Source: a virus (Duplodnaviria > Caudoviricetes). Taken from it: a DNA stretch of 63,217 nt. The stretch covers positions 1-63,217 of IMG/VR virus record IMGVR_UViG_3300021379_000848; one strand, given 5' to 3'. The notes beneath the pieces were generated by a model that searched no databases, was not told the DNA's origin, and was given only the letters and a program-made list of their open reading frames with translations. Numbering within the stretch: position 1 is the stretch's first letter; each line of letters begins with the position of its first letter. Positions 1 to 62,000 of this stretch are shown here, in pieces. The position numbers were made by a program, and so were the translations under genes.

Positions 1-135
1 GGTATTGCGGCTTTAGCTCAGTCTTTAGCTCAACAACAAGGTAAGTCAATGCAGGGAATTGCGGCTAATATTGATGCTCAAGAACGCCAGAACGAAATGA
101 TGCAGAAACAGGAAGCAGCGAGAAATCAACAGTTA
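1..135. repeat. Terminal direct overlap (copy 1), assembly circularity
   Basis: 1-135 matches 63083-63217 except one synonymous difference (pos 9 G vs 63091 A); a gene reads in frame across the junction. Confidence 0.95.
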
Positions 136-492
136 GAAAGACAAGGAGAAGCATTAGCACAACAAAGAGAGTTAGATAGAAGGTCTACTTTATTAGGAAT
201 GTCTCAACAAAGATTAGCTGCGGCAAATCAAGCAAGAGCTCAAGCAACGAAAGCATTAACTGGAGGAGTAGGGCAGATGTTAGGTGGTGTTGCTAGTTTC
301 GGCGCTACTCAAGGTTGGTTTGATAAAGGTTTACCTCCAATTCCTGATCAAAATATGTTTTTTGACGTTGGTAATCCCACAGGGCTCCCTAAAGGACAAT
401 TTAATTTAAAAGAGGGTCTCGATGCTTACTACAATCAAAGTAAAAACAAGTCTAATATAGAATGGGGCACTGACCAATTTAATATAGGATAA
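1..492 (+). CDS. 3' part of putative ejection/pilot (cargo) protein that starts at 62783 (~263 aa in total)
   Basis: In frame with the ORF from 62783 across the overlap; Gln/Ala-rich coiled coil plus Gly-rich hydrophobic segments; follows the tail genes. Confidence 0.75.
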   Translation, partial: GIAALAQSLAQQQGKSMQGIAANIDAQERQNEMMQKQEAARNQQLERQGEALAQQRELDRRSTLLGMSQQRLAAANQARAQATKALTGGVGQMLGGVASFGATQGWFDKGLPPIPDQNMFFDVGNPTGLPKGQFNLKEGLDAYYNQSKNKSNIEWGTDQFNIG

Positions 493-496
493 CAAT

Positions 497-2068
497 ATGG
501 CAGCAGACGCAAATTTAATTAAAGGAGCAGCTATGATGTACCAAAATCAAATGGTAGGTGCATCTAGCGAGGGCTTACAAAAAGGTTTTGAACAAAGCAT
601 TCAACCTTACATTGATAAAATAGAAGAAGACGAGAAGAACGCTAAATTATCAGAAGAGCAGTTAGGTAGAATGTTAAATACATTGAATTCTAATGTTGAT
701 GGTAATGGCTTTACTGCAGCTGAACAGACTGTAGCGAGAAATTGGGCTATGTCTAAACGCAATGAATACGCAGACTTAGCTAAGCAACTTTCTAAAATGG
801 ATTATTCTGATCCAAACTATTCTAATATTAAAGCAAAGTTAGATGGTATAAAACAATCATTTGAAAACCTACGTAAAAATAGAGATTTATTAGCTAACGG
901 TAAAAAAGAGTTTATTGAGCAGCAAGATAATATTTCAGCTGCAAATAGATTTTTTAATCCATATAATAAGGAATTTGCTAAAATCGGAGATGATGGTATG
1001 ATAATCTATAACTCTAAAGACGGAGATAAAAGGTTAAGTGATACGCAATTTCCTGAGTTAATAAACAAAGAAGGTTTAGATACCTTTAGAGCAATGTCTA
1101 ACCAGTTGTTTAAATTTGCAAGCACAGGAGCACCTACAAAAAACGCATTAGACGCCGCTAAGGATAAAATGAGAAGTTATTTAGATAAAGGTAATATTGT
1201 GGACTCTATTATATTTGATAAATTAATGCCTGGACTTTATGACAGTGAAGATACTAAAGCTACAATAGAAGCTTACAAAAAAGCTACTGGAGACCAGAAA
1301 AAAGCTTTTAAAGCTAAATTGATCGAAGATATCATAGATACTAACACCGGACAAGCTCTAGGTATGGGTAAGGATGTATATAGAGCTAAGCAAAGAGAAG
1401 CTGCTAATAGAGCTAATCGTAGAGGTGGATCAGGAGATTTAAGCCAAAAAGATTTATTCAAACAAACAGAAGCTAGAAGAAAAGAGTACAACACTTTAAA
1501 ACAAAATTTAGCAGAAAAAATAGATGATTTAGATATAACTCAAGATCCTAGCGGTACTTCTTTATTTGTACCAGTAATGCAAAACGGCAGGTGGACAGGA
1601 AATACCAGTGAAATTTTAGTTAGAAAAACAGCGGAACTTAAACCGGGTACAGAAGAAATGATTGTAAATACTATTAGATTTGAAATTAAAGATAATGGTG
1701 AGTGGAAAAAAGTAACTAGAGAAGAATTAAAAAATTATCAAGCTAGCTTAGATCCAAACATTAGCGCTCCTCCTAAAGACGTTGTTACAAAAGCCACTTC
1801 TAAAGCTTACAACGAGGCTGTAGCGGAATTAGAAGAAGAAGTTTCTAATTGGAAGCCTCTTGATAAATATACAAAAAAGGTATATAAAATGAACAAAAAA
1901 ACGGGTACTAATTCTTATGTTAATGAATATGAATACCCGAGTGAAGCTTATGAAAAATATATAAAGAAGGCTGATGGAGATGTTGAGGAAGCTAAAAGAT
2001 TATACTTAAGGGATAAGAAAAATTTATTAAACCCTAAAGCAGGAAGCTTAGACAATTTAGGAAAATAA
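497..2068 (+). CDS. Putative internal virion (ejection) protein, 523 aa
   Basis: Long helical ORF between the pilot-like gene and the giant protein, the usual podovirus cargo-gene position. Confidence 0.6.
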   Translation: MAADANLIKGAAMMYQNQMVGASSEGLQKGFEQSIQPYIDKIEEDEKNAKLSEEQLGRMLNTLNSNVDGNGFTAAEQTVARNWAMSKRNEYADLAKQLSKMDYSDPNYSNIKAKLDGIKQSFENLRKNRDLLANGKKEFIEQQDNISAANRFFNPYNKEFAKIGDDGMIIYNSKDGDKRLSDTQFPELINKEGLDTFRAMSNQLFKFASTGAPTKNALDAAKDKMRSYLDKGNIVDSIIFDKLMPGLYDSEDTKATIEAYKKATGDQKKAFKAKLIEDIIDTNTGQALGMGKDVYRAKQREAANRANRRGGSGDLSQKDLFKQTEARRKEYNTLKQNLAEKIDDLDITQDPSGTSLFVPVMQNGRWTGNTSEILVRKTAELKPGTEEMIVNTIRFEIKDNGEWKKVTREELKNYQASLDPNISAPPKDVVTKATSKAYNEAVAELEEEVSNWKPLDKYTKKVYKMNKKTGTNSYVNEYEYPSEAYEKYIKKADGDVEEAKRLYLRDKKNLLNPKAGSLDNLGK

Positions 2069-2085
2069 TAATTTACAAATAAATA

Positions 2086-5000
2086 ATGGAAGAATTATAT
2101 AATGATTTGTATGGTAAAGGCTTATACACTAAGTCTTTACAAGATTTTGAACAACAATTTACTGGTAAAGAAGATATATTATTTAACGCTATAGGAGAAG
2201 ATTATGCTTCTGACCTAGAGGAGTTTAAGCAAAAGTATTTTTCGCCGGGAAAGACACAAGGACCTGCAAAGGACGCTGCGGCTGTAGGTCCATTAAACGC
2301 AGCGGATTTGGATTCTACTTCTTCGGATGGTTCTTTGGATTTTTTAGAATTAGATAAAACATTTAAAGGAACATTAGAAGAACCAGCTAATCCAATGTAT
2401 CAATTAGTGGATACTTTAGGAAAACAAAAAGAAGTTGAGATTGAAAACGAATGGGTAGAAGAATCTTTATTACCTAAAAAAACAGGCTATAAGCGTGAGG
2501 ATGGGGTAACTAAAAAAATTGAAGTTCCTATATATCCAAAGGGATATGAGGAGTACATGAAAAAAGCTGAAGGAAATTTAGATTTAGCTAAAAAAATGTA
2601 CTTAAAAGATAAAAAAAGCGAAATAGTAGGTGAGGAACTTAGTAAATATATAAGTGATAAAAATTCAGATGACTTAGAAGAATATTTCGATGAATACAAA
2701 GATTTAAAAATTGAACAAACTGAAAAGCTAAGTGATGTTGTAGATATTAACTCTACCTCTTTAAAGTATCTTAAAGATGAGACTGTCAATGCTGTCAATG
2801 CAATTCAAAAAATAGATAAAGCTTTTGAAAGAGCTGATTTACTGAGCCGAGATAGGATTAAAGAACTGATTGATTACAGGGAAAATTACTTAACCGTAGC
2901 TAAACAAGCTATAAAGAAATCACAAGATTTAGTAAACACTAATACAAAATTAGCTTATTTACTTAAAGATGAAGAAAAGTTTATTGACGCAGCTAAACGT
3001 AGTTATGATTTTGTAGATATTTTAGGGTATTCAGCATTAGCGTCTACAGGTGAAATGATTGCTGGAGCAATTGATTTACCTAAAATGTTTGTTGCTTCTA
3101 CTTTATCTGGTATCTTAGATCAAGATTTAGATGATGTTGACAGAGCAGTGGTTGCTGCTTTTGCTCCATTTCAGTTTGCTGATAATTTAAGAAAAGGCTC
3201 AACTGAACTTAGAGAAGGAATAGCAAAGCCTATCAGTATTTCTGATGTTGAAAATATGTCAGATTTTGGAGAATGGGCTGGCTCATTAATAGGTAATATG
3301 GCTCCACAAATAGCTTTAGGTATTGCTACCGGAGGAGGCGGCTGGGCTGCTAGTACCGCTATGGGAGTATCATCAGCAGCTGGTAAATATTCAGACTTAC
3401 TTAAGGAAATGGAAGAAGGAGCTGAATATACTACAGCTCAAGTCTTATCATCGGCTTTAATATCCGGAGCAGCAGAAACACTTTCAGAAAAAATAACTTT
3501 TGGACAATTCAAAGGTATAAAACAAATACTTAAAAGAAACCCAAAATCTTTAAAAGCAGCACAAGAATACATACAAAACAATATAGCTAAAGGAGCTTAC
3601 CTTAAAACAACTGGGCAAGAAGCATTGTCGGAAGTTGCAGCACAATTAGCTAACAATATGGTAGATATTAATATTTTAGAAAAGAAAGATGTTAATATCA
3701 CAGATGGACTTTTAGACTCTTTAGCCGGAGGTGCTTTTATGAGTGGGGTTATGTTTAAATCTCCTGCAGTTCTAGCTAATGTTTATCATAAAGTAAGAGG
3801 CACTGAAATAGCAGAAAAATTACGTAAAAACGCGATTCAAATAACAAAATTAGATAAAGCTTTAACTGATTTAGAAAAGAAAGAAAGCACTCCTGAGAAC
3901 GAAGAGGTAAAAAAAGGGTTAATTGAAAGCATGGATAAAATAGCTAAGAACAGTCTTAATGCTATGACAGAAGATGTTCAGTTAGTTAACTTTATGACTA
4001 AAGACGAAAAAGCTGAAATTGAATCTTTAAATGAAAAGAAAGCAGATATAGAAAGTAAAGCTAAAACTATTTTTAACAACAAGGATCTTGATCCTGATAT
4101 TAAAAAACAGCAATTAGACGAATTAAATAATCAATATAAAGAAGTAACTAAAAGAAGATCATTCTTAAGTAAAGTAGCGGCTGTTAGAGTTAATCAAGGA
4201 AAAGATGCTAAGTCACTACAAGAAGCGTGGGAGAGGTCTCAAAAAGTTATGCAAGAGTTCGCTAATGATGCAGACTTAAATATAGATTATATTGAGATTA
4301 ATTCAACTAACTTTGAATCAAAGATAAAGGACTTAAATTTAACTCAAAATCAAAAGAAAAGTATACTTGAAAATAATGGTACGTTTTTAGATTCAAGTAC
4401 GAATTCTAATATTAATAAAGATATTATTTTTATTAACAAAGATTTAGACGCTGCTTATGGGGCAGCCACTACAGTTCAGCATGAGGTGTTACATGTTGTT
4501 TTAAATAAGGTGGTTAAAGATCAATTAAAAATAGCTGGTAAAGATGCTTCAAACACTCAGGCTGTTATAGATGGTATGGGTCTTAAGTTGTATGAAAAAC
4601 TATCTAAAGTAGAAGGTTTTAACGATACAACCTTAGCTAAAAGATTTGATTATTATTTAGAAAACAGTAACTTTGCTCTTGAAGAATTAATAACAGTACT
4701 TTCAGAACATATTTCAGAAACAAAAGCTAAAAAAGGAACGTTTAGTGCAATAGTTGAGTTTTTTAAAGATTTATATGCAAGATTCACAGGTCAGCAATTA
4801 CAACTTGAAACCACAGATGATTTATTAGGATTTGTGAATTCATACACTAAAATGTTTGATGCCGGTAAAATTGACACTGACATATCTGGAGCCGTAAAAG
4901 AAGCTAGAGTGAAGATTGATTTGAATGTAGATAGAGCTCAAATACAGAAAAGAATAGACGAAATTAGAAAAGAAAGAGGTATAACGCGAAGACCTCAAAT

Positions 5001-8000
5001 TAAGAATATAGATTCTAAAGCATCTAAATATTTTGATGATGAGTTAACACAGTTAGCTAAAGACTTTGAAGATGGTGTAATACCAGAGGATGAATATCTA
5101 CAGCGTATTGATGATCTGATGGATGAAATTGAAAAAGCTGAGGCAGCTAATGAAGAAGCAGAGGATTTTTCAGTTGTAAAAAAGCAACCTAAAAAAGCTA
5201 AAAAACAAAAGTCGGAATTACAAATTGAGTTAGCAGGTAAAGCTAAAATACATAAAGAATTACTAGATCGTATTGGTAATGATCCAAACGGTTATAATCC
5301 AGATGATGCTAGAATTTGGGATACGATAGCTAGCATGGTTGAATCTAAGTCTAGGAATTATACCACAGCTAAAGGTGACTATGCTCCATTAACTAATTTA
5401 CCTAAATTTGATATGGAAAGTATGGTCGCTGAAACTCAAGCTAGTTTAGTTAACTATATCAAAAAATTCGATCCTTCTTTAAATAATTCTCTTTATGGTT
5501 ATGTAAACGCGCAGCTCCTAAACAGGATGAGAGCAGCGTTGAAAACAGGCAAAGTAGCTGGTACCGAGTTTATGACGGATGTCACAGAAGCTAAAGGTAT
5601 AGCATACACTGACGAAGGTTATGTAGAAGTAAAAGGTAAAGAGTATACTAGAATATCTGATTCCAAAGCATTTTCAGATGAACTTATAGAAAAAGCTAAA
5701 GCCGATTTATTACGAGTTATAAGGGTGTTAAAATCAAAGATCGATTCCCCTATGACTATCAACCAATCTATATCACCATTAATGCGTGAAATTATCCAAA
5801 ATACTAAAAATATGATGGATGCCGATATTAAAGTTGAAATGGGAGGTAAGAAAGATGGTAAATTGCGTAAATGGTTACAAGCTAATAAGAAAATGGTAAT
5901 TGAAAATTCAACCACTACTTTCTTAATGGGTAAAAATAACGGTAAAGTTGTTAAAGGAGGTATACCTTCTGCTATTGAAAAGAAAGTTAACGGAAGATGG
6001 TTACCATATCCTGAGTGGATCGATAAGAAAATTGACAGAGAGACTACTTGGGCTAGAGGTAATACGTCTGGTAATGAGCTGGCTAGAAGAGTACCCGCTT
6101 CAAGAGTTTCAGATGCAGATTTCTTAAGTCACGTATTAGCACCTACTGGTAATCCTATTAGAGGTAGAAAAGAAGCAATAGCAATGCACTTATCTTCTGA
6201 ATTAAGTGTTGAACTGTTTATAAAAGAGCTAAAAGACGAGAATAGCGACATATCTAAAGCTTTTGAAACTAACAGGGAGCTAAGAGACGAAATACTGGTT
6301 GACAATGTTATTTCGGAATTATCTAAGCAAGCGGAAAGAGGTTTACTTAAAAACTCTATGCGTGACGGTACAATAATGGATGGAATTGCTGATCGCATAA
6401 AAAATAAAGCATTAAGTAAAACTATAAAAGCATATATTCAAAGCGAAGATAAAGAAGACCTCACAATGAGTGGTCTGTTAAGGTATATAAAGAATGAGGG
6501 CTTGTTGGATAATATGACAGTTTCAGACAAACTTAAGTTCTATATTGATGGCTTTATGGCTTTTAATGATGGACCAAAAGCTACACTTAAATTCTTTAAT
6601 CAAACAGAAGCTGTTGCTCAAGATGTTACTAGATCTGAAGCAGATGGATTAAATGAGGGTATTTTAAAATTCTCAGCTTATAGCGAAGCGGACTTAAATA
6701 AAAAGATCAATAAAATGCTGGAGCGTAAATCCGGTATAAAAGCAGGTACTAAAATTTCTAAAACTAGAGCTGCTAATATTGGAAAAAATAAAGGTAAGTT
6801 TAAATTCTTTTTACCTCCGAATGCTGAGGACTTTATGGGTTTAATATATCCTTTAATAGGTAAAGGTAAGCAAGGTGATAAAGACCTCGAGTTCATAAAA
6901 GAAACTTTGATTGATCCTTTTAATAGAGCTGAAAATGAGATTAGTGAATTTAGACAAAGGTTATCTGAAGATCTAAAGGTGCTAAACAAAGAAATGGGTG
7001 ACTTAGATACAAATGTAGACAAGGAAATTATAAAGGAATTAGCTGAGCAAAACTTTACACCTACTCAAGCTGTTAGGGTCTTTATATGGACAGCGCGTGG
7101 AGAAGACATTCCTGATTTAACTAAAAGCGAAGCTCTTAAGTTAAGATTAAAGGTTATGAAAGATAAAAAGCTGCTTAAGTACGCTAAAGATCTAATGGAG
7201 ATTACATCTAAGTTTGGTGGTTACCCACCTCCAAGCAAAACGTGGGCCGCTGGTAATGTAACAGCCGATTTCTATGAATACGCTAATGAAAACGTTAGAG
7301 CTGATATATTAGCTGATTGGCAAGCTACTGTTGATGTTATGTTTAATAAGGAAAATTTAAACAAGATGTTAGCTATTTTCGGTAAGGATTATGTAAAGAA
7401 CCTAGAGAGAAGTTTACAACGCATGAAATCTGGTAAGAATCGCCTACATACTCAAGACGATTTAGGTAGTGGGTTTTTAAATTTTATCAATGGTTCTATC
7501 GGGGTTATCATGTTTATGAATATTCGTTCCGCCGTGTTACAAACTATATCCGCTGTTAACTTTATGAACTGGACAGATAATAATCCTATAAAAGCCGCAA
7601 AAACTTTAAAAGACCCTAAGAACGTAGCTAATCACTTTATGAGACTATTGAATTCAGATTTCTTAAAACAACGAAGAGCTGGGTTAGAGATAGATGTAGC
7701 TGAATCGGAAATTGCAGACGCGGCCACAGAAGCAAGAAACTTTGCGAAAAGTGTATTTCATAAATTAATAAGATTAGGGTATAAGCCAACTCAGTTTGCG
7801 GATAGTTTTGCTATTGCTTTAGGTGGTACTACTTTTATTATTAATAGACAAGCTACTTATGAAGCTGAAGGTATGACAGCAGAAGAAGCGTATGAAAAAG
7901 CGTTTGTAGACTTTAGAGAGATAGCTGAAGAAAACCAGCAATCATCGAGAACAGATAAAGTATCTAATATTCAATCTTCTGCTTTAGGTAGATTAGTATT

Positions 8001-8718
8001 TGCATTTAACAATACACCGTTCCAGTACACCCGTATTATAAAGAAAGCTACTTTAGATCTAATAAACAATAGAGGTGATTGGAGAACAAATGTAAGTAAA
8101 ATAATTTACTACGGCGCAGCACAGAATGCAATATTCTTCACATTGCAACAGGCTCTTTTTTCAGTAATGTTTGATGATGAAGAAGAAGAAAAAACTACAG
8201 CTAAGCAACTTCGTTTGGCTAACAGTATGGTTGATTCTATATTAAGAGGTTCTGGTTTACCAGGAGCAGTAGTTAGTACACTTAAGAATACTTTAATTAA
8301 ATATACGGAAGAAGAAAAGAAAGGGTGGAGAGGCAGTCCTGAAAAAGTTGTATTAGAGCTAAGTTCTTTATCACCGCCTATCAATTATAAAGCTAAAAAG
8401 ATAGTGAACTTTATCAATAGCGCTAAATACTCAGAAAGTACATATGATGAAGTTAGAAGGTATGGTAAGCTGGTTTCAGTAGCAAATGTACCGGTTGATA
8501 GGATCTTAACCAAATACGATAATCTAACCACAGCAATGAGTGGTGATATAGAAAATTGGCAAAGAGTTGCTTTAACGTTAGGATGGGATAAATGGAGTCT
8601 AGATTTGTACGATAAAAAGAAAAAGAAAGCTAAAAAGACAAACAACGCTATAAAAACTTTAAAAATGAAACCACTAAAAATGAAACCACTAAAAATGAAA
8701 CCACTAAAAATGAAATAA
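2086..8718 (+). CDS. Giant polyvalent internal virion protein, 2210 aa, with zincin HExxH and sigma70 region-2-like domain
   Basis: HEVLH at ~aa799 with downstream EE; IWDTIASMVESKSRNY...ETQASLVNYIKKFDPS...YGYVNAQLLNRMRAAL at aa~1077-1152; Gly/Ala hydrophobic stretches; C-terminal GRLVFAFNNTPFQY region typical of large ejection proteins. Confidence 0.7.
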   Translation: MEELYNDLYGKGLYTKSLQDFEQQFTGKEDILFNAIGEDYASDLEEFKQKYFSPGKTQGPAKDAAAVGPLNAADLDSTSSDGSLDFLELDKTFKGTLEEPANPMYQLVDTLGKQKEVEIENEWVEESLLPKKTGYKREDGVTKKIEVPIYPKGYEEYMKKAEGNLDLAKKMYLKDKKSEIVGEELSKYISDKNSDDLEEYFDEYKDLKIEQTEKLSDVVDINSTSLKYLKDETVNAVNAIQKIDKAFERADLLSRDRIKELIDYRENYLTVAKQAIKKSQDLVNTNTKLAYLLKDEEKFIDAAKRSYDFVDILGYSALASTGEMIAGAIDLPKMFVASTLSGILDQDLDDVDRAVVAAFAPFQFADNLRKGSTELREGIAKPISISDVENMSDFGEWAGSLIGNMAPQIALGIATGGGGWAASTAMGVSSAAGKYSDLLKEMEEGAEYTTAQVLSSALISGAAETLSEKITFGQFKGIKQILKRNPKSLKAAQEYIQNNIAKGAYLKTTGQEALSEVAAQLANNMVDINILEKKDVNITDGLLDSLAGGAFMSGVMFKSPAVLANVYHKVRGTEIAEKLRKNAIQITKLDKALTDLEKKESTPENEEVKKGLIESMDKIAKNSLNAMTEDVQLVNFMTKDEKAEIESLNEKKADIESKAKTIFNNKDLDPDIKKQQLDELNNQYKEVTKRRSFLSKVAAVRVNQGKDAKSLQEAWERSQKVMQEFANDADLNIDYIEINSTNFESKIKDLNLTQNQKKSILENNGTFLDSSTNSNINKDIIFINKDLDAAYGAATTVQHEVLHVVLNKVVKDQLKIAGKDASNTQAVIDGMGLKLYEKLSKVEGFNDTTLAKRFDYYLENSNFALEELITVLSEHISETKAKKGTFSAIVEFFKDLYARFTGQQLQLETTDDLLGFVNSYTKMFDAGKIDTDISGAVKEARVKIDLNVDRAQIQKRIDEIRKERGITRRPQIKNIDSKASKYFDDELTQLAKDFEDGVIPEDEYLQRIDDLMDEIEKAEAANEEAEDFSVVKKQPKKAKKQKSELQIELAGKAKIHKELLDRIGNDPNGYNPDDARIWDTIASMVESKSRNYTTAKGDYAPLTNLPKFDMESMVAETQASLVNYIKKFDPSLNNSLYGYVNAQLLNRMRAALKTGKVAGTEFMTDVTEAKGIAYTDEGYVEVKGKEYTRISDSKAFSDELIEKAKADLLRVIRVLKSKIDSPMTINQSISPLMREIIQNTKNMMDADIKVEMGGKKDGKLRKWLQANKKMVIENSTTTFLMGKNNGKVVKGGIPSAIEKKVNGRWLPYPEWIDKKIDRETTWARGNTSGNELARRVPASRVSDADFLSHVLAPTGNPIRGRKEAIAMHLSSELSVELFIKELKDENSDISKAFETNRELRDEILVDNVISELSKQAERGLLKNSMRDGTIMDGIADRIKNKALSKTIKAYIQSEDKEDLTMSGLLRYIKNEGLLDNMTVSDKLKFYIDGFMAFNDGPKATLKFFNQTEAVAQDVTRSEADGLNEGILKFSAYSEADLNKKINKMLERKSGIKAGTKISKTRAANIGKNKGKFKFFLPPNAEDFMGLIYPLIGKGKQGDKDLEFIKETLIDPFNRAENEISEFRQRLSEDLKVLNKEMGDLDTNVDKEIIKELAEQNFTPTQAVRVFIWTARGEDIPDLTKSEALKLRLKVMKDKKLLKYAKDLMEITSKFGGYPPPSKTWAAGNVTADFYEYANENVRADILADWQATVDVMFNKENLNKMLAIFGKDYVKNLERSLQRMKSGKNRLHTQDDLGSGFLNFINGSIGVIMFMNIRSAVLQTISAVNFMNWTDNNPIKAAKTLKDPKNVANHFMRLLNSDFLKQRRAGLEIDVAESEIADAATEARNFAKSVFHKLIRLGYKPTQFADSFAIALGGTTFIINRQATYEAEGMTAEEAYEKAFVDFREIAEENQQSSRTDKVSNIQSSALGRLVFAFNNTPFQYTRIIKKATLDLINNRGDWRTNVSKIIYYGAAQNAIFFTLQQALFSVMFDDEEEEKTTAKQLRLANSMVDSILRGSGLPGAVVSTLKNTLIKYTEEEKKGWRGSPEKVVLELSSLSPPINYKAKKIVNFINSAKYSESTYDEVRRYGKLVSVANVPVDRILTKYDNLTTAMSGDIENWQRVALTLGWDKWSLDLYDKKKKKAKKTNNAIKTLKMKPLKMKPLKMKPLKMK
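8660..8715 (+). repeat. 15-bp tandem repeat (TAAAAATGAAACCAC) x3.7 encoding LKMKP repeats
   Basis: Directly visible perfect repeat at the C-terminus of the giant protein. Confidence 0.95.
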
Positions 8719-9422
8719 TGCAAGATCTGAGTTTTTTAAAAGAGAGTTTTGGTCAAATGAATGGGACATTGACCTTTATAACTGTGGTGCTAGTAATAAT
8801 AGCATTTGTAATTATAAAATCAAAAGATACTTTAAAAGAGTTCTTTTTGAAATCTAAAAAACCTGAAGCTAAAAGCTTAGAACCATTGAAGCATCATAGT
8901 ATGTTTTTAACTGCTGATAGGGTTATTAGTAGAATAAACGCTACCGATTTTACTACGTTTGATTCTTACGATGAAATAAAAACCAAACTATTAAAAACAT
9001 TAATAGAAATGAAGGTGGGCGTGGTTAAAAAAAGATTTTTAGAATTAATTGATATACCAGGTTTGAAAGATGAAGAACCTTTTAAGTTAAAATTCATAAT
9101 AGCAACGTCTTTGTCATCTTTAGTTAATGAATATAACGATATGGCTATAAAGTACATGAGTGATAACCTAGAAATTGATGTAAAAGACGCAAAGTTTCTG
9201 GTAGATAAATATGAGGAGTTTAGGCAATATATTGTTGATGCGTTCACTGATGAATTAGAAGTTATAGTTATGGATACAAATTATTCTGATAATTTCGAAA
9301 GATTAAATACTATATTTTACGCCGTTTCAATTAGTTTAAGCATTATACCAAGAGATGTGGTAGGTGTGTTTAACGAAATAAACGGTAGATACAAAAAATA
9401 TTTAAATGAAAAAAATACTTAA
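8718..9422 (+). CDS. N-terminally membrane-anchored protein (holin candidate)
   Basis: One TM segment (TLTFITVVLVIIAFVII) then a soluble domain; adjacent to the spanin-like gene. Confidence 0.45.
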   Translation: MQDLSFLKESFGQMNGTLTFITVVLVIIAFVIIKSKDTLKEFFLKSKKPEAKSLEPLKHHSMFLTADRVISRINATDFTTFDSYDEIKTKLLKTLIEMKVGVVKKRFLELIDIPGLKDEEPFKLKFIIATSLSSLVNEYNDMAIKYMSDNLEIDVKDAKFLVDKYEEFRQYIVDAFTDELEVIVMDTNYSDNFERLNTIFYAVSISLSIIPRDVVGVFNEINGRYKKYLNEKNT

Positions 9423-9855
9423 AATACCTTTATACTTACTTTTAGTTTTATTTTTTTTTAATAATTGTCGCACTAAAAAAACCGTTACGGAATATAAAAA
9501 TAAAATAGTACGTGATACTATAATAAAGAACGTGGTGAAGACAGTTACGAAAGAAGTAAAAGATACTATATTAATTGAAGAGCCTTGCGATTCTTTAGGT
9601 AACTTAAAAAACTTTTCTAAAATAATAAAAAATGAAAAAGCTAAAGTAGAAGTATCTAACAAAAAAGGTAATATAGAAGTCAAGGTAGATATAGATAGCT
9701 TAGTTAACTACAGGGTAGAACAGTTTAAGAAAAGCTATAAAAAAGAAATAGAAATTAAAAAAGTAGAAATAATAAAGTTTAGAACTCCGAGGTATATGTT
9801 TGTAATAATAGTTTTATCTGTATTACTTAACATAGCTCTCTTAAGATTAAATTAA
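9406..9855 (+). CDS. Lipoprotein with C-terminal TM helix, unimolecular spanin candidate
   Basis: Signal peptide ending FFFNN-C; DT(I/V) beta-rich middle; C-terminal MFVIIVLSVLLNIALL. Confidence 0.6.
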   Translation: MKKILKIPLYLLLVLFFFNNCRTKKTVTEYKNKIVRDTIIKNVVKTVTKEVKDTILIEEPCDSLGNLKNFSKIIKNEKAKVEVSNKKGNIEVKVDIDSLVNYRVEQFKKSYKKEIEIKKVEIIKFRTPRYMFVIIVLSVLLNIALLRLN

Positions 9856-9856
9856 A

Positions 9857-10072
9857 ATGGATAAAAAGAAACCAAAGAAAAAAACAACAGTAAGCTCAAG
9901 CATTAAGAAACAATTTCCAAATAGCATTGTAGCTAAAGTAAAAGGTAGAAAAAACACCTACAACGTAATGAGTAAGAAATCAGGTAGATCATTTACTATT
10001 ACTAGAACACCTGCTAAAACAGCAAAAACCTATACTGTAAAAGAAATCCTAAACCGTAAAACTAGAAAATAG
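9857..10072 (+). CDS. Small Lys/Arg-rich protein
   Basis: 71-aa ORF, highly basic, tightly packed. Confidence 0.7.
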   Translation: MDKKKPKKKTTVSSSIKKQFPNSIVAKVKGRKNTYNVMSKKSGRSFTITRTPAKTAKTYTVKEILNRKTRK

Positions 10073-10073
10073 T

Positions 10074-10220
10074 GTGAGAAAAAAAGCGAAAAAAAACACT
10101 AAAAGCAAAAAAGATTCTTGTTATACAAAGGTAAAAAGATCCTATAAGGTGTTTCCTTCAGCGTACGCGAGTGGAGCTATAGCTAAATGTAGAAAAGCTA
10201 AAGCTAGAAAAAGAAAGTAA
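10074..10220 (+). CDS. Small basic protein, 48 aa, GTG start (not in ORF track)
   Basis: Translates to ...KKDSCYTKVKRSYKVFPSAYASGAIAKCRK...; stop overlaps the next ATG. Confidence 0.75.
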   Translation: MRKKAKKNTKSKKDSCYTKVKRSYKVFPSAYASGAIAKCRKAKARKRK

Positions 10221-10474
10221 TGGCTGTTAGAAAAACAAAAAAAGGTGCTGCGCTTAAAAGATGGTTTAAAGAAAAGTGGACAGACGAAAAAGGTAATGCT
10301 TGCGGATCTACTAAAAATAAAAAAACAAAAAAGTGTAGACCTAGTAAAAGAATAAGCTCTAAAACGCCTAAGACGTGGGGAGAAATGTCTTCATCTGAAA
10401 GAAGAAAAGCAATTGCTGAAAAGAAAAGAGTAGGCATGGGAAGAAGAACATCATCATTAAAACGTAAAAAGTAA
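10220..10474 (+). CDS. Small basic protein (LKRWFKEKW...CG...CRPSKR family)
   Basis: Motif recurrent in aquatic phage proteins; 84 aa. Confidence 0.8.
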   Translation: MAVRKTKKGAALKRWFKEKWTDEKGNACGSTKNKKTKKCRPSKRISSKTPKTWGEMSSSERRKAIAEKKRVGMGRRTSSLKRKK

Positions 10475-20417: not shown

Positions 20418-21176
20418 TTAAAGATAATCAAGCACTTGTTCCGGTGGAACGTTTTCTATTAGCTTGGTTATTGCCTCTCTTTTTATTTGAGAAACTCTGA
20501 CAAATCCACTTTCCATAGTCATACCTAATTTATTAGCGATCTCTTTAGCGGGCACTCTGTCGCAATCTAACCCATAAGACATTCTCACAATATCATACTC
20601 TTTCTTAGTTAAATACTTATTCATGATACCTAATAAATAAACGTTTAACATGTTCGTATTGTAAATTTTTCTTGTGTCTTCGATTTCAAATATTTTATCT
20701 TCACTATTTGCAGCTAGAGCATCAGTGCTTTCAAATACACTATTGAAAAACATTTCGGTTATTTTCTGATCTTGACCATTGTTTTTACGTATCTCAATTA
20801 ACTTGTGTTCTGGAATTTTTATGCTTCCTCTATTGATATCAATTGCTCTTCTGATAGCTCCCTTAATTCTTTTAGATACAAAAGACTTCATTCTATTTTC
20901 AGGATCAGGAGATTCCATGACAATATCCCAGTCTAATTTATCTACTGCAGCTACTAAACCTAAACTACCTTCTTGTATTAAGTCATTTATACTTAACACA
21001 CCTGAAGCTTGATCTGACGTAGAAAACTTTCTTGCTATAGTTTCGACGAGTGGCAAGAAGAATATTACCAGTTCATCTCTACTATATTCATCCCACATTT
21101 TGCCTTCTAAACGACCAATACTCTGCTCTTTATCTTTTTTATACCTTACGTAGTTTTGTATATTGTATTTTTTCAT
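20418..21176 (-). CDS. Phage-encoded sigma70-family sigma factor
   Basis: Region 2 LPLVETIARKF...DLIQEGSLGLVAAVDK...RIKGAIRRAI; region 4 HTH AKEIANKLG...RVSQIKREAITKL. Confidence 0.9.
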   Translation of the reverse strand: MKKYNIQNYVRYKKDKEQSIGRLEGKMWDEYSRDELVIFFLPLVETIARKFSTSDQASGVLSINDLIQEGSLGLVAAVDKLDWDIVMESPDPENRMKSFVSKRIKGAIRRAIDINRGSIKIPEHKLIEIRKNNGQDQKITEMFFNSVFESTDALAANSEDKIFEIEDTRKIYNTNMLNVYLLGIMNKYLTKKEYDIVRMSYGLDCDRVPAKEIANKLGMTMESGFVRVSQIKREAITKLIENVPPEQVLDYL

Positions 21177-24795: not shown

Positions 24796-24830
24796 AATAA
24801 TATTTTTTTTTTAGTTTATTACTTTATCAA

Positions 24831-25124
24831 TTATAATTCGTATTTAGCTTGTAAACCTAATAATTTAACTCTATTCGCTGTTTCTATATAACACTCTCTT
24901 TTATAAGATCCTCTTTTGAAGTCTATAAAATTACCTGAAAAATAATCACCTGGTTCATTGCCATGAACTATCGCGAAACTATTCACTTTCCCATCTTGGA
25001 AATAAACCCCTAAGTCAAAGTTATTTCCTTTACTATCAGTATAAGGTCCTAAGTACATACAATAACTCCACATCCATTCTCTTGCTGATGGATAATATAG
25101 ATCAACTTCGTACAATGTTTCCAT
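24831..25124 (-). CDS. Hypothetical early protein
   Basis: Between two motif copies. Confidence 0.75.
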   Translation of the reverse strand: METLYEVDLYYPSAREWMWSYCMYLGPYTDSKGNNFDLGVYFQDGKVNSFAIVHGNEPGDYFSGNFIDFKRGSYKRECYIETANRVKLLGLQAKYEL

Positions 25125-28552: not shown

Positions 28553-28574
28553 AATTATAGTTTTTATTTGTTAG

Positions 28575-28662
28575 TGGACGTGGCAGGAATCGAACCTGCG
28601 TTTTGAAGCATTTGGACTCGGTAACCTGTTATTTATTCGCTTCGTCTAACCATTTCACGCCC
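28575..28662 (-). ncRNA. tmRNA-like RNA reduced to the tRNA-like domain (88 nt)
   Basis: Acceptor GGGCGTG/CACGTCC with G3.U70 and discriminator A; stemless D-loop AAATGGTTAGAC; helix GAAGCG/TGCTTC; T-arm GCAGG-TTCGATT-CCTGC; no anticodon arm. Confidence 0.75.
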
Positions 28663-28665
28663 AAT

Positions 28666-28747
28666 TGCAGCACCTACCTTCAATACTATCCGTCGATAGC
28701 GTCCTACTTTGGGTGGCATTACGGTATCGTAGAATACCTGTGCTGCA
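28666..28747 (-). ncRNA. Putative 82-nt multibranch RNA
   Basis: Closing stem TGCAGCAC/GTGCTGCA; internal hairpins GGTAT/ATACC and CTATC/GATAG. Confidence 0.5.
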
Positions 28748-28748
28748 T

Positions 28749-28962
28749 TGAGAAGCGGATAGACCTGGAATGTTAGGGATGCTCCCGGATTACACTAAGG
28801 AATGCACGTCATTTACTAGTATGCCCTGACTTATAACCTCAGTGTACGCTACCTAGACTTACACCCTTTTCTCTGTTTATACTATCTTTCACCGTCATCG
28901 AGCCGTTTCTCTCATCCCGCTAAGGAATTACGCCTTTAATCCGGTTTCCAGACTTCTTCTCA
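28749..28962 (-). ncRNA. Putative ~214-nt structured RNA
   Basis: Nested pairings TGAGAAG/CTTCTCA, CTGGAA/TTCCAG, CCGGATTA/TAATCCGG, TAGTAT/ATACTA; begins 24 nt downstream of motif copy 28986; no ORF in track. Confidence 0.55.
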
Positions 28963-28992
28963 GTTTTATTTTTTATTCAATTAATTTATCAT

Positions 28993-29446: not shown

Positions 29447-29645
29447 ATTAATCTATTTTTTTATATCTAATTAACTTCATTTATTTTATCACATGCTTAT
29501 CGTATCCAGATCGTAAGTACTACAAACTCCGTAATACCAACAATGTCAACGACAAACCTATCCGTATCCGCACTCCAATTCCAAACAAACCAAAGGATAT
29601 AAAATATTTACCCAATAATTCACTATAAGGGGTGGTTACCCAGTA

Positions 29646-29672
29646 TGACAAAGTGTCAGTGACAAAATGTCG
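29646..29672. repeat. Tandem TGACA-N3-TGTC(A/G) palindromes
   Basis: TGACAaagTGTCA g TGACAaaaTGTCG. Confidence 0.6.
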
Positions 29673-29707
29673 TGGTAGTGGAGCACTCGGTAATGAGTTT
29701 CAAAAAT

Positions 29708-29753
29708 GCGACACTAGCCTGTTATATAATATATAGTAGCACCCAATTGTCGC
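29708..29753 (-). repeat. GCGACA...TGTCGC element copy 2
   Basis: GCGACActagcctgttatataatatatagtagcacccaatTGTCGC. Confidence 0.85.
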
Positions 29754-29780
29754 ACTTTTTACGCTCTTTTTTTACTCTGA

Positions 29781-32882: not shown

Positions 32883-33057
32883 TTTAAATTGTTTTAAATT
32901 GTTATTTATTTTTCATTCAACTATATTATCAAAGTAAGACCGTGCCTAGACTGTAAGATGCTATACATGCTGTACACGCCGTTGGCGTACGTATATAACG
33001 GGTCAACCCCGAGCCCGTGTAAGGACCCAGGGAAACCCTGAATGGATAAAATGCATG

Positions 33058-33436: not shown

Positions 33437-33899
33437 AATTATTATATTCTTGATTCACCTATATTATCAAAACCAGGCCGTGTCCAGACTGTAAGATGCT
33501 ATACACCTCGCTGCGCTCGGCTTGTAAGCCGGTATGCAATCGCACCACGGATCCGCAACCCCAAATCCGCACCTGAAAATTAGTACGGAATCCCAAACCA
33601 GTACACAAAAACCTTCCGGAATCCCAAAAACCCGACCCGAAATCCAAAAACCGAACGGGGGCTGGGTAAAAGAAACAGCTTTCCCAATGAGCCGGGTAGT
33701 GAAAATATGAGTATATTACCCCGAACCTCTATATTTCTAACATTTTTTTTTAACCTTTACATCTCTACTACTTCTTTTTAGGTGTTTTTCACGGGTACGG
33801 ATAGATTTTTTTTTGTCTTATGACATGCTGTTATGTGGAAATATTAAAAAAATTTTTCTCTTACGAGAATATACAAACGATAGGGAGCGAGTATAAAGT

Positions 33900-33943
33900 G
33901 CGACATAAGCCTGTTATATATAATAGTAGGGGGCAATTGTCGC
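33900..33943 (-). repeat. GCGACA...TGTCGC element copy 3
   Basis: GCGACAtaagcctgttatatataatagtagggggcaatTGTCGC in the divergent intergenic region. Confidence 0.85.
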
Positions 33944-34005
33944 AGTTTTAAAGCTTAAGAACCAGGGTGTTTAAGTGATATTATATGTGTAACTAATGTA
34001 ATAAC

Positions 34006-34306: not shown

Positions 34307-35857
34307 ATGACAAAAGATGAGATTGTAAAAGATCTGTCATTTGGAACTGATGCGAGTTCTAAAATAATGGCAGGTGTAGATAAGTTAGCTAGCGCAGTGA
34401 AGTCTACTTTAGGTGCATCGGGGATGTGCGTAATTTATGAGGACCAGCTAGGTAGACCGGTGGTCACAAAAGATGGTGTAACCGTTGCGAGGAACGTAGT
34501 CTTAATGGACCCGGTCGAAAACATTGGTGCCACAATGATTAAAGAAGCGGCTAACAAAACGGTTGCTGAAGCAGGTGATGGTACAACAACCTCTACAGTA
34601 TTAGCTCAAGCGGTTTTACATGAGTTAAGAACTGCTGTAGACAGCGGAATGAGTGTCCGAACTGCCGTAGATGGTGTGAATACTTATTTAGCTAAAGTAT
34701 TAGAGTATTTAGATGAACATGCTATTGAGGTTAACGGTTCAATGTTATCAGATGTAGCTACTATTAGTTGTAATAATGACAGAGAGCTAGGTGGAATCAT
34801 CGGTGAGGCTTATGACAAAGTAGGTAGAGACGGAGTTGTTACAATTGAAAAGTCTGATACCTATGACACGTACTTAGAATTTATCGAGGGAGCACAGTTT
34901 GCTTCTGGATTACAATCGCAGTATTTTGCAACAGATACAGCGAAACTAATTGCGGAATATGAAAATCCGTTAGTATTATTGTCAGCATCGGAAATTGGAG
35001 ATATCCGTAAGATTCGCGGTATTCTAGAATATGCTATTAAACAAGATAGACCGTTATTAATTGTGGCATCGGTAGATGATAGGGTATTGCAAATATTGAT
35101 GGCTAATGTAGCTAACCACAATACGAAGATTAATGTAGTTGAACCTCCGGGGTTTGGTCCTATGCGTGAAGATGCAATCCAGGATTTAGCATTTTTAACT
35201 GGAGCGGCAGTTTTAAACGAAAACTTAGGTGACGACTTTGAATTAGCATCGACAGATATCCTAGGGGAAGCTAAAAAGGTTATCACAGATAATAAGACGA
35301 CTACGATAATGCTTGATAGCGTTCCAGAATCAGTTTCAGAGCGCATAGAGGACGTTAAAAATAAAATTAATAGCGAAACTAATGATTTCCTAAAAAAGAA
35401 GCACGAGGCTCGTTTAGCGACTTTAACCGGTAAGCTAGGAGTTATAAAAGTCGGAGCTCATTCTGAAATTGAGTACAAAGAGAAGTATGATCGAGTAGAG
35501 GATGCGGTTTATGCGACAAAAGCTGCTTATAAGGAAGGAATTGTTGCCGGTGGCGGTGTTGCTTTGTTAAATGCTTCAACCCTAGTGCCTGTTTCTAGTG
35601 AAGGTGAAAGATTATTGGCTTCAGCTATCATGAATCCGTATATTACAATTATAGACAACGCAGGGTTGGATGCGGTTTTCCCACAAGACAAAGATCACGG
35701 GTTAGATGTTAAGTCCGGTAAAGATGTTAATATGATTGAAGCGGGTATTATTGACCCTGTGTTAGTAACTAAAACAGCTTTAATCAATGCGGTTAGTGTA
35801 GCTACGACGATTATTTCAGCAAATTGTGTAATTAGTAACAAAAGAATCACAGTATAA
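34307..35857 (+). CDS. groEL: Chaperonin GroEL (Cpn60)
   Basis: VKSTLG, VTKDGVTVA, AGDGTTT, GIVAGGG, GIIDP; no GGM tail. Confidence 0.97.
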   Translation: MTKDEIVKDLSFGTDASSKIMAGVDKLASAVKSTLGASGMCVIYEDQLGRPVVTKDGVTVARNVVLMDPVENIGATMIKEAANKTVAEAGDGTTTSTVLAQAVLHELRTAVDSGMSVRTAVDGVNTYLAKVLEYLDEHAIEVNGSMLSDVATISCNNDRELGGIIGEAYDKVGRDGVVTIEKSDTYDTYLEFIEGAQFASGLQSQYFATDTAKLIAEYENPLVLLSASEIGDIRKIRGILEYAIKQDRPLLIVASVDDRVLQILMANVANHNTKINVVEPPGFGPMREDAIQDLAFLTGAAVLNENLGDDFELASTDILGEAKKVITDNKTTTIMLDSVPESVSERIEDVKNKINSETNDFLKKKHEARLATLTGKLGVIKVGAHSEIEYKEKYDRVEDAVYATKAAYKEGIVAGGGVALLNASTLVPVSSEGERLLASAIMNPYITIIDNAGLDAVFPQDKDHGLDVKSGKDVNMIEAGIIDPVLVTKTALINAVSVATTIISANCVISNKRITV

Positions 35858-59051: not shown

Positions 59052-62000
59052 ATGCCAGAAATAAAAAATGTATTTACATCGGGTCGAATGAATAAAGACT
59101 TAGATGAGCGACTACTATCGAATAATGAGTACAGGGATGCATTGAATATTCAAGTAGCTAGTACTGATGGTAGTGATATTGGTGTTATTCAAACACTTAA
59201 AGGCAATGTATCTAAATATACAGGTACCGGAAAGTGTATAGCAACAGTTGTTGATAATGAGAATAATAAAATATATTGGTTTGTTAAAGACACTGTAAGT
59301 TCAGAGATATTAGAATACGATCCGTCAACAGAAACAACAACCCAAGTTGTAGATGATTCAACTAATGTGGTTTTGCAATTTACAGATGATATTATTACAG
59401 GAGTAGTTTTATTTGAGGGATTTATAGCATGGACAGACAATATTAATGAACCTAAAATAATCGACATAGAAGAGTCCAAATTAAATCCTAGCTCGATAAC
59501 ATTAGATGATATTACAATTATCAGAAAGAAGCCTCTAAACGCTCCTACACTTAATATAACAACAGTTGAAGATGGGACAATAAACATATCTTCACCAGGT
59601 GTAAACTTTTATACTTTTAGCATAGGTGATTTAGTATCTATAGATATTAGCGGTTTATCAGATGCGGTTGTAGGTGATATTATAGAATTTACGTATACAG
59701 ACACTTCAGATCAATATGTCGTTCAAACAAAAGTTAAAAATTTAACAGCTACAGATAATCTTGAAGTAGTATATAGAAATCATAATGCTGCTACTAATAG
59801 TTCGCAGTTTGTGTATGCAATACGTATATTTAAAAACCCTTTATTTGAAGAAAAGTTTGTTAGGTTTGGTTACCGTTGGAAATACGATAACGATCAATAT
59901 TCAGTTATGTCACCGTTTTCAGATACTGCTTTTTATCCTAATGTTTATAAGGAGTATTCTATCGAAGACGGGTATAATAATAAAATGACTAACTCTATAA
60001 CAGATTTAACACTGGAAAATATTGATGTACCTGAGGGAGTTAAAGAAGTTGAGATACTTTATAAAGAATCCAATAATACTAATATATATGTTTACTCTCG
60101 CGAAGTGGTATCAGCTCCTACAACATTAACCTTAGATATTGAAAAAGAAAATATATATGCTGTATTAGAAAGTTCTCAATTGCTAAGAGCTTACGATATG
60201 GTTCCTAAAAAAGCAAAAGCCTTAGAGGTTATTGGTAATAGATTAGTATTCGGTAATTATGAAACAGGGTTTAATTTAGAAGACTATGTACCTAATTTAA
60301 CTATAGATTTAGTATCACGATCTAATGTTAATGATTTAAGATCTATAAAGTCAGGTAGATCTTATGAATTCGGTGTTGTATTCGAAGATAACTATGGTAG
60401 ACAAACACCTGTTGTGACCGCACCTAACCTTGTTTATAAAGTCCCTTATGGTGATGCTGGCAACAATAAGCAGTTCCAAGTTACCTTAAACAACTTTCCT
60501 AATACAGATGCTGACTTAACAAAATACAAAATATACATAAAAGAAAGCTCTCAAGAGTATTATAATATTTTAATTGATAAAGCTTTTGAAGATAACAGTG
60601 ATAACTCCGCGTATTGGTTAAGCGTACCTAGTTACGAGATCAATAAGTTTGAAGAAGGTGATTTTTTATTATTAAAGAAAGGAGCAAATACTAATACTCC
60701 AGTTAACAATGCTAATGCTAAATACAAAGTGTTAGATGTGAAAACTTCAAAGCCTGACAATGTAGATTCGTCTGATAATTTTGATGGAAGATTCTTTATT
60801 AAAATTAACAAGGATGATCGTATATCTACAGAGTTTTTATCCTCTTTAGGTTTAGCTGGTCAATCAGATTTTGTTGAGCCAGATGCTGTTATTGATGTTG
60901 CTACAGTGCCTTCAGATCCTAAATCAACTTTAGGTTTTTTAGAGTACGAAGAAGAGCCGAGTTCAGGGATATTTATAAGATATGACTATTACTATAAAGA
61001 TGGTCAAATATATAGGGTTGAAAGCACAGGATCTTCTGACAACTTTAGTTTTGGGCCAGATATTACATCTGATGTTACAGTTGGTGATACGGTTTTAGCT
61101 GTAACTGACGGTTGGGATAACCCTACTGAGAGTCCTGATATTACAGATATAGTCTTTTATGCGCAATCTATAGCTTCCGATAGAGATGTACGATTTTTCG
61201 TTCACTTTACAGGAACAGTAGGTTTATCTGTTATACCAGCTATTTTTGAAACTACAGTGAAAGATGATCTTTTAGATATTTATTACGAAACCGGTAACAC
61301 ATATGCTTCAGGGACAGTTACATCGCCTCAAACGTTATCTTGGTATAATTGCTTTAATTTTGGTAATGGATTAGAATCCAACAGGATCAAAGATGATTTT
61401 AATGAGATACAATTAGAGAAAGGAGTTCGCGTATCTTCTACGGTATCTTATGACTTCAATATTATAAATGCTAAGAATAGCCTTATATGGTCAGGTTTAT
61501 TTAATTCCAGAGGAGCGGTTAATAATTTAAATCAATTTAACTCAGGGTTAAAAATAACTAAAGATTTAAATCCTGAATATGGATCTATTCAATTACTACA
61601 TACTAGGAATACAGACCTTATTGCTATTTGTGAGGATAAAGTTTTAAAGCTATTAGCTAATAAAGATGCTCTTTACAATGCTGACGGAAATATAAATCTA
61701 ACATCGACAAATAATGTTATAGGTCAAGCAGTTCCTTTTAATGGTGAATTTGGAACTCAAAATCCAGAATCTTTTTGTTCTTATGGGTATCAAACATATT
61801 TTGCAGACAAATCTAGAGGAGTCGTTTTAAGGCTATCTATGGACGGTTTAACTCCTATTTCAATGGCAAATACTGTTTCTTATTTTAGAGACAAATTAAA
61901 GGCTCATACGGGCTCTATAATTGGTTCTTATGATATTCATACATCTCAATATATATTATCTTTCGAAGATGACGAAAGTGTAGCTTATTCAGGAGTATCT

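Follow-up and report, generated by a model that had tools for sequence, protein, structure and literature searches.

How can a phage start to transcribe its genome when the motif heading its early genes does not resemble the promoters of its host? This question is raised by the virus record IMGVR_UViG_3300021379_000848, a stretch of 63,217 bases that was analysed whole (hereafter the window) and that is nearly complete (CheckV completeness 98%); its source is an uncultured, Flavobacteria-type phage. The last large gene of the late/structural arm is a giant open reading frame (ORF) located at 2086-8718 (+), identified from the ORF list and its translation, which encodes a putative virion cargo (ejection) protein of 2210 amino acids (aa). 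An earlier reading of this DNA, made from the letters alone (the sequence-only reading), had noticed inside this protein a segment resembling regions 2.1-2.4 of sigma-70 factors, and had proposed that the virion injects a sigma-like module that redirects the host core RNA polymerase to the early promoters. The flagged peptide is found exactly as quoted, at aa 1077-1152 (5314-5541, +). Overall, the observation is confirmed and its interpretation is partly supported. The presence of a sigma region 2-like domain in a giant protein at the cargo position is supported at the level of the predicted fold, and the explanation that we favour as a whole, in which an ejected sigma-2-like domain would bind the host core polymerase, is one that we regard as possible, somewhat short of probable.

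A sigma domain 2-like fold is predicted inside the giant protein

The flagged segment lies within a four-helix, sigma domain 2-like domain at aa 1040-1165 (5203-5580, +), which was delimited by an AlphaFold2 model, Foldseek searches and a profile match, and it comprises the putative equivalents of sigma regions 2.1-2.4, including a KFDP turn. The model of aa 1040-1167 (128 aa) was predicted with a local distance difference test score (pLDDT) of 90.5 and a predicted template modelling score (pTM) of 0.84. It contains four helices, at model residues 2-25, 36-51, 71-87 and 97-113, the last three of which correspond to the flagged stretch. When this model was compared with the PDB using Foldseek, all 44 rows listed (ranks 1-50) were sigma fragments or sigma-length holoenzyme chains, the identity of each chain being read from the entry title and the chain length. 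Several of these rows superposed with a root-mean-square deviation (rmsd) of 2.5-3.3 Å over about 80 residues. The closest ones included domain 2 of M. tuberculosis SigA (4x8k_A; probability 0.82, rmsd 2.8 Å over 81 columns), the N-terminal domain of SigE (8b3z_C; template modelling (TM) score 0.66 by target, rmsd 3.1 over 82), 9a7s_A (rmsd 2.5 over 83) and the Legionella RpoS fragment 5h6x. In a longer model of 391 aa (pLDDT 82.1), four helices form an N-terminal unit, which a disordered linker connects to a second domain; 24 of the 44 PDB rows listed for it were sigma-related. In the viral BFVD collection, 15 of 50 rows were named sigma factors or RNA polymerase subunits, among them a gp55-like row, the 'RNA polymerase sigma-like factor' of Klebsiella phage KPV15 (probability 0.63).

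The sequence-only reading had likened the segment to sigma regions 2.1-2.4, and in terms of structure the comparison stands: the predicted fold is closest to sigma domain 2, carrying the helix of region 1.2 plus the 2.1, 2.2 and 2.3/2.4 helices in the order that had been proposed. By sequence, membership in the Pfam family Sigma70_r2 fails. We consider a sigma-2-like fold likely, since the structure prediction tips the balance over the sub-threshold sequence tests described below.

Weak sequence matches share one register

Taken alone, the resemblance of the sequence to sigma region 2 lacks statistical significance. The Sigma70_r2 profile (PF04542, curated cut-off 24 bits) matched 2 of 66 family members below threshold, with a best E-value (E) of 0.014. 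Against the 2828-aa ORF of relative G001 it scored 10.8 bits (E 0.024) over positions 20-67 of the 71 in its hidden Markov model, and in a six-frame scan of the window genome its only match was a free-standing sigma gene. A family profile of the subdomain searched against the PDB returned SigE 8b3z as the second of 5 matches (E 0.39), with the region 2.2-2.3 equivalents aligned in register. The sole segment aligned by hhalign with bacterial sigma-2 sequences (30 segments taken from nine Bacteroidota-related genomes) spanned 23 columns, covering the equivalents of the region 2.2 helix and the turn. A phmmer search of a 500-aa fragment against the PDB found designed helical proteins only. Nevertheless, the weak matches all share one register.

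Conservation inside the family is concentrated in the same part of the domain. Between helices 3 and 4, the KFDP-type turn hardly varies at P91 and I86, and helix 4 carries a conserved L..Y(I/V)N..L..R pattern in which L97 and R108 are present in at least 90% of sequences. With respect to the residues of regions 2.3-2.4 with which sigma factors recognise and melt the -10 element, this pattern is all that the domain shows. The mean frequency of the top residue is 0.51 and 0.59 in helices 3 and 4, respectively, and 0.36-0.39 in helices 1-2. The idea that the region 2.2-like helix would be the single most conserved element, as expected for a role restricted to core binding, was dropped, helix 4 being at least as conserved. 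The likeness to sigma exceeds chance only when the sequence matches are joined with the predicted fold. True homology is plausible.

The domain belongs to a modular giant protein of a large viral family

We analysed the organisation of the giant protein by BLAST coverage over 119 homologues and by an alignment of 69 sequences. The parts follow one another in this order: a variable N-terminus, a Pachyviridae-like region, a zincin motif, a conserved block at aa 1050-1420, a variable spacer and a second conserved block at aa 1530-2160. None of these parts receives a name from Pfam or PHROGs. The Pachyviridae-like region, rich in Gly and Ala (aa 374-662; 3205-4071, +), was recognised by tblastn in six records, with 27.5-28.8% identity (E 3e-8 to 8e-8) to Cellulophaga phages phi19:3, phi13:2 and phi46:3, and the phi19:3 match falls in gp129, a protein of 1871 aa annotated as a virion structural protein. 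It is the only part of the giant protein matching any of 50,697 phage records at E<=1e-5. Upstream of the sigma-2-like domain, where the sequence-only reading had placed a zincin domain, a pattern search located an HEVLH motif at aa 799-803 (4480-4494, +). Its H, E and H, together with a downstream E, are nearly invariant (at least 90%) in the 69 aligned sequences; no peptidase family of Pfam matched the giant protein.

The conserved core of the protein, aa 1081-1410, was covered by all 119 homologues compared. Mean identity reaches 0.46-0.62 in the 30-aa bins of aa 1081-1170, which include most of the flagged stretch and rank among the best-conserved parts of the protein. After a low-confidence linker of about 20 aa, the sigma-2-like domain is followed by a domain delimited by conservation and by the model (aa 1185-1425; 5638-6360, +), hereafter domain X. 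This domain has 22 invariant columns in 66 sequences and a pLDDT mostly of 86-96. It shows little likeness to solved folds, the non-sigma Foldseek rows of the 391-aa model reaching a probability of 0.06 at most. It ends in a near-invariant ERGN(V/I)KFS-type motif.

This motif, at 6334-6360 (+) (aa ~1416-1425), sits at the border between domain X and the variable spacer. Of 200 giant homologues, 138 matched a loose pattern for it, each a single time. It might mark a place of processing or docking. The idea that the module is bounded by repeats of a cleavage-site motif was considered and discarded, given that the ERGN(V/I)KFS type is single in those 138 of 200 proteins and that most second matches look spurious.

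The C-terminal domain (aa 1530-2160; 6673-8565, +), recognised by BLAST coverage, is covered by 96-97% of the 119 homologues, with an identity of up to 0.67 per 30-aa bin, and matches no Pfam or PHROG family. A role as a membrane-channel domain was also considered and dropped, because the block holds a single, moderately hydrophobic stretch (aa 1793-1818). The protein terminates in four tandem basic pentapeptides of MKPLK type (aa 2193-2210; 8665-8715, +). This tail is covered by about 2% of the 119 homologues and is therefore specific to the window phage.

The family is large and almost purely viral. Among 8000 candidates scored, 489 were homologous to the giant protein at E<=0.001; clustering at 50% gave 218 representatives, 132 of them with E<=1e-30. 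In viral contigs, an alignment-based scan confirmed 182 of 327 candidate stretches, and a single-protein scan gave 26 pattern matches, none of which was confirmed. The species genomes scanned yielded one match only, on the 56-kb contig QQUU01000066.1 of a Bacteroidetes metagenome-assembled genome, which is probably a phage contig binned with its host.

The gene occupies a crAss-type cargo position

Two genes upstream of the giant ORF, across the ends of the window, lies a gene for a 1226-aa tail protein (59052-62732, +) carrying a crassvirus muzzle C-terminal domain (PF25729, E 2.5e-11, 44.3 bits for a cut-off of 27; phrog_14478, 1.6e-126). It is this muzzle-like gene that fixes the cargo position of the giant gene, in agreement with what had been read from the sequence. 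The genes that follow the muzzle in phi-crAss001 code for cargo proteins verified by mass spectrometry, three RNA-polymerase-associated giants among them (PMC10172136). Likewise, in phi14:2 the zincin protein gp65 is a neighbour of the virion RNA polymerase gp66, the two being fused as one polyprotein in some phages (10.1101/2020.03.07.982082). Because of this synteny with the crAss-type muzzle gene, we read the giant protein as probably carried in the particle as virion cargo.

The same position in the distantly related MW202828.1 (741-12320, -) is occupied by an ORF of 3859 aa. Since this protein lacks the sigma-2-like/X module (hhalign probability 0.13%) and its genome lacks both the early motif and the free sigma described below, the cargo slot seems to be exchangeable.

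Models give weak support for binding to core RNA polymerase

Sigma-70 factors dock through their domain 2 on the beta' clamp helices of the core enzyme. The sequence-only reading had suggested a co-fold with the Flavobacterium beta' subunit. When the domain, supplied with its alignment, was co-folded with residues 150-420 of F. johnsoniae beta' (RPOC_FLAJ1), the median score was 0.56, in a band of weak support, and all three controls gave 0.00. The runs agreed in at least 79% of the contacts, with a partner pLDDT of at least 78. The score stays in the weak band, came with no interface and may reflect likeness to solved complexes. We conclude that binding of the sigma-2-like domain to core RNA polymerase receives weak support from these models.

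In agreement with the earlier claim that the giant protein lacks a DxDGD motif, a pattern scan found neither DxDGD nor DFDxD, the only DxDxD strings being DQDLD at aa 345 and DLDPD at aa 667, both in poorly conserved regions. No match to a beta'-type domain (PF00623) was found in the window genome, the control being detected in 14/14 genomes. The profile of T7-like polymerases (PF00940) did not match the genome either, but its control matched nowhere, so this result is uninformative. The idea that domain X or the C-terminal block might hide an RNA polymerase was also considered, and dropped for want of a conserved acidic triad and for the small number of strands. In domain X, the near-invariant DxD falls within a predicted helix, and the model of aa 1040-1430, in which helices dominate and three short strands occur, is not a double-psi barrel.

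The early motif is conserved, and a free-standing sigma co-occurs with it

The proposal also concerned the promoters that the module would serve. The early genes do share a motif unlike the Bacteroidota promoter. A pattern scan detected a tripartite motif, CTTACA-N7-YACG-N10-GATAAnATA, in 16 copies between 18973 and 33495 (-). These 16 matches (with up to 3 mismatches) compare with 0.24 expected, and none of 100 shuffles reached that number. All copies, for example those at 33460-33495 and 32922-32957, are on the minus strand and head small leftward (early/middle) genes. Each of five related genomes carries 10-16 copies confined to a single strand, compared with 0-1 matches for reversed-pattern controls; the motif is absent from the outgroups MW202828.1 and phi19:3. 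The canonical Bacteroidota pattern, taken as TTTG-N17-21-TAnnTTTG as quoted in the earlier reading, is not enriched in the genome (5 matches versus 3.3 expected).

The separate sigma gene that had been reported also exists, at 20418-21176 (-). It encodes 252 aa and matches PF04542 (3.8e-5), PF04545 (2.8e-4) and phrog_351 (6.8e-24). The nearest motif copy upstream of it is at 24820-24855. The free sigma gene lies downstream of motif copies, and therefore something present at entry would have to start transcription; this starter would be either the host SigA or a delivered factor.

Which of the two phage proteins would read the motif is not decided by their distribution. The domain and the motif were found together in 6 genomes, and the free sigma is present in 6/6 of them; all three are absent from both outgroups (2/2). 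Since the free sigma has an identical distribution and the six genomes are close kin, co-occurrence cannot tell whether the domain or the free sigma reads the motif, and we no longer count it as evidence for a link between domain and motif.

In its most complete form, the proposal holds that an injected initiation factor replaces the crAss-type virion RNA polymerase and drives the early motif. The segment aa 1040-1425, comprising the sigma-2-like domain and domain X, perhaps after self-cleavage by the zincin, would bind the host core polymerase and direct it to the CTTACA-N7-YACG-N10-GATAATATA promoters that head the early genes, including that of the free sigma itself. In that case, host sigma and newly synthesised protein would both be dispensable for the first round of transcription. 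We consider this complete form unlikely. Besides the constant presence of the free sigma, identities between the window and relative G005 are 56% for the free sigma, 42% for domain X and 25%, over 59 alignable aa, for the sigma-2-like part. That the motif remained unchanged despite such divergence of the domain leans against the latter as the sequence reader, although helix 4 is the domain's best-conserved helix. Moreover, a tripartite middle-promoter motif of phi14:2 was transcribed in vitro by the E. coli sigma-70 holoenzyme (10.1101/2020.03.07.982082), and the host holoenzyme consequently stays a live candidate.

Proposed ejection and polymerase binding weighed against other explanations

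In the explanation that we favour, the giant protein is most likely a crAss-type cargo, which would travel inside the particle and enter the cell before the DNA or along with it. On reaching the cytoplasm, either intact or after cleavage, it would bind the host core RNA polymerase through its sigma-2-like domain, and the bound polymerase would be brought to the entering genome, where early transcription would start; alternatively, the domain might compete with the host's own sigma. The sequence, its conservation, the predicted fold and the position of the gene are established; in this scheme we infer that the protein is packaged, ejected and cleaved by the zincin, that the domain binds the polymerase, and any reading of promoters.

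A number of results weigh against it. At the structural level, no Foldseek row against the PDB reached E<=0.001 (best E 0.27), and TM normalised by query was at most 0.46. By sequence, neither the giant protein nor its 500-aa fragment matched Sigma70_r2 at E<=1 in Pfam. The 391-aa family profile retrieved no sigma among 9 PDB matches, which were amyloid-precursor helices and similar. In hhalign, the domain alignment gave a probability of 0.2% (E 0.29) against the phage's own sigma family and of 0.26% (P 0.24) against the 30 bacterial sigma-2 segments. The remainder of a sigma factor was not detected. Pfam found neither PF04545 nor any other helix-turn-helix family in the giant protein, nor did one appear among the first 25 of 35 families listed for 66 relatives; Pfam and Foldseek detected no sigma-3 or sigma-4 part downstream of the domain, and domain X matches nothing. 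As regards the co-fold, 7 of the 80 solved complexes had a score of 0.60 or less, as did both of the mismatched pairs among those passing. When no strong prior is available, this band is more often wrong than right, and the score may reflect memory of solved sigma/beta' complexes. Packaging is deduced from synteny and from the record annotation of a distant, partial homologue. Finally, the domain was not found in any cultured phage among the 50,697 records (tblastn, E<=1e-5); a further search with aa 1040-2210 at E<=10 gave no match, an oddly empty result, so that the absence rests on the stricter search.

The strongest alternative keeps the fold and removes the contact with the polymerase. 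Whether inherited or reached by convergence, the sigma-2 fold would act within the ejection machinery or the packed cargo as a helical unit that binds DNA or protein, for instance one holding the genome end or domain X. We judge this alternative somewhat unlikely. It would account for a likeness that exists at the fold level only while sequence tests fail, and for the fact that the sigma-2-like part is the fastest-evolving of the module (the 25% versus 42% for domain X mentioned above). It would also fit with the domain being always fused ahead of domain X in giant proteins, as seen in the best 150 of the 218 representatives, none of which is a free sigma of about 250 aa. Against it, the equivalents of regions 2.2-2.4 (helices 3 and 4) are the best-conserved helices of the domain, the beta' co-fold stands apart from its three controls, and the genome shows no other evident means by which early transcription could begin from a motif that is not host-like.

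Small helical bundles easily reach a TM near 0.45, and the likeness might be one of chance, an ordinary four-helix bundle being placed near sigma-2 with no evolutionary or functional tie. The Foldseek and hhalign values given above, the latter insignificant also against bacterial sigma-2, speak in its favour. On the other hand, no other helical family shows up among the 44 PDB rows listed, four independent weak sequence matches fall on one register, and the turn is nearly invariant, all of which makes this reading decidedly unlikely. It is very improbable that the giant protein stays undelivered and acts late in the infected cell, e.g. as a scaffold for assembly or a sigma decoy that shuts down transcription late: its packaging is indeed deduced only from gene position and the annotated distant homologue, but in phi-crAss001 (PMC10172136) and phi14:2 (10.1101/2020.03.07.982082) the giant multidomain proteins encoded at this position have been verified as cargo by mass spectrometry, and MW202828.1 also holds a giant ORF there.

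Comparison with known systems

The predicted ejection of a polymerase-binding domain was compared with systems already described. With domain 2 of sigma-70 factors (regions 1.2-2.4), the phage domain shares the predicted four-helix arrangement, the KFDP-type turn between the 2.2-like and 2.3-like helices and the L..Y(I/V)N..L..R pattern of the last helix. It differs in falling below every sequence threshold and in being embedded at residue 1040 of a 2210-aa late protein, where it is followed by the ~240-aa domain X instead of sigma-3/sigma-4. Free phage sigmas, such as the 252-aa sigma of this phage and the T4 gp55-type minimal sigmas among the BFVD rows, are likewise phage proteins that would reprogram the host core polymerase. 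They are, however, small and made after infection, whereas the domain in the late giant protein could precede any phage gene expression.

The closest parallel in gene order is the crAss-like block (gp65 zincin plus gp66 two-barrel polymerase in phi14:2; gp47, gp49 and gp50 in phi-crAss001). In both, the muzzle gene is followed by a giant late gene whose polypeptide also contains, further upstream, a zincin motif, and in both the giant protein would presumably be ejected with the DNA to start early transcription. The window phage differs in lacking DFDxD/DxDGD and a beta'-type domain, and in having a sigma-like domain where its relatives carry the polymerase. Coliphage N4 resembles it in that a giant virion protein, expelled together with the DNA, renders the incoming genome active in transcription (PMC13434306). 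N4, in contrast, brings a complete T7-like polymerase, and the window phage would have to use that of the host. Polyvalent proteins (Iyer et al. 2017, PMC5512222) are also very large and multidomain, have a zincin-type motif, lie among virion genes and are thought to be injected. In the available text of that paper the word 'sigma' occurs 0 times, and none of the Pfam families it gives match the giant protein.

Other features of the window

The rightward late arm of the genome contains GroEL, tail and fibre-like genes, terminase, portal, capsid and the 1226-aa tail protein, and continues across the window ends into the genes at 1-10474. The leftward arm (33647 down to 10609) consists of many tiny ORFs followed by replication and nucleotide-metabolism genes. 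By terminase, the closest database phages are MW202828.1 (62%) and the Flavobacterium 'elemo' phages (45%). The phage-encoded GroEL (34307-35857, +; phrog_5725, E 1.1e-132) is followed by a small ORF, and groEL plus a 10-kDa chaperonin are present too in MW202828.1.

Two intergenic regions, 29447-29780 and 33648-34005, have in common an element of about 45 nucleotides (nt) with GCGACA/TGTCGC inverted ends and an AT-rich core. One copy sits at the point where the early and late arms diverge; the earlier reading listed four copies. A further stretch of 440 nt (28553-28992, -) contains no ORFs, is GC-richer and terminates in the T-arm-like GGTTCGATTCC. ARAGORN (tRNA/tmRNA) and Rfam detected nothing in the window, this stretch included.

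Implications for phage transcription takeover

The known routes by which phages take over transcription are the production of sigma factors or polymerase modifiers after infection and the injection of a whole polymerase, as in N4, crAss-like and phiKZ-like phages. The literature searched, supplementary files and subscription journals excepted, contained no account of sigma-like domains within virion or polyvalent proteins; this negative is no proof of absence. If our explanation is true, a ready-made sigma-type domain in the virion cargo would constitute a third route of transcription takeover. It would also explain how early transcription starts in an abundant, uncultured group of phages whose promoters are unlike those of the host. 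The finding further suggests that the crAss-type cargo position may be a swappable slot for transcription-initiation devices.

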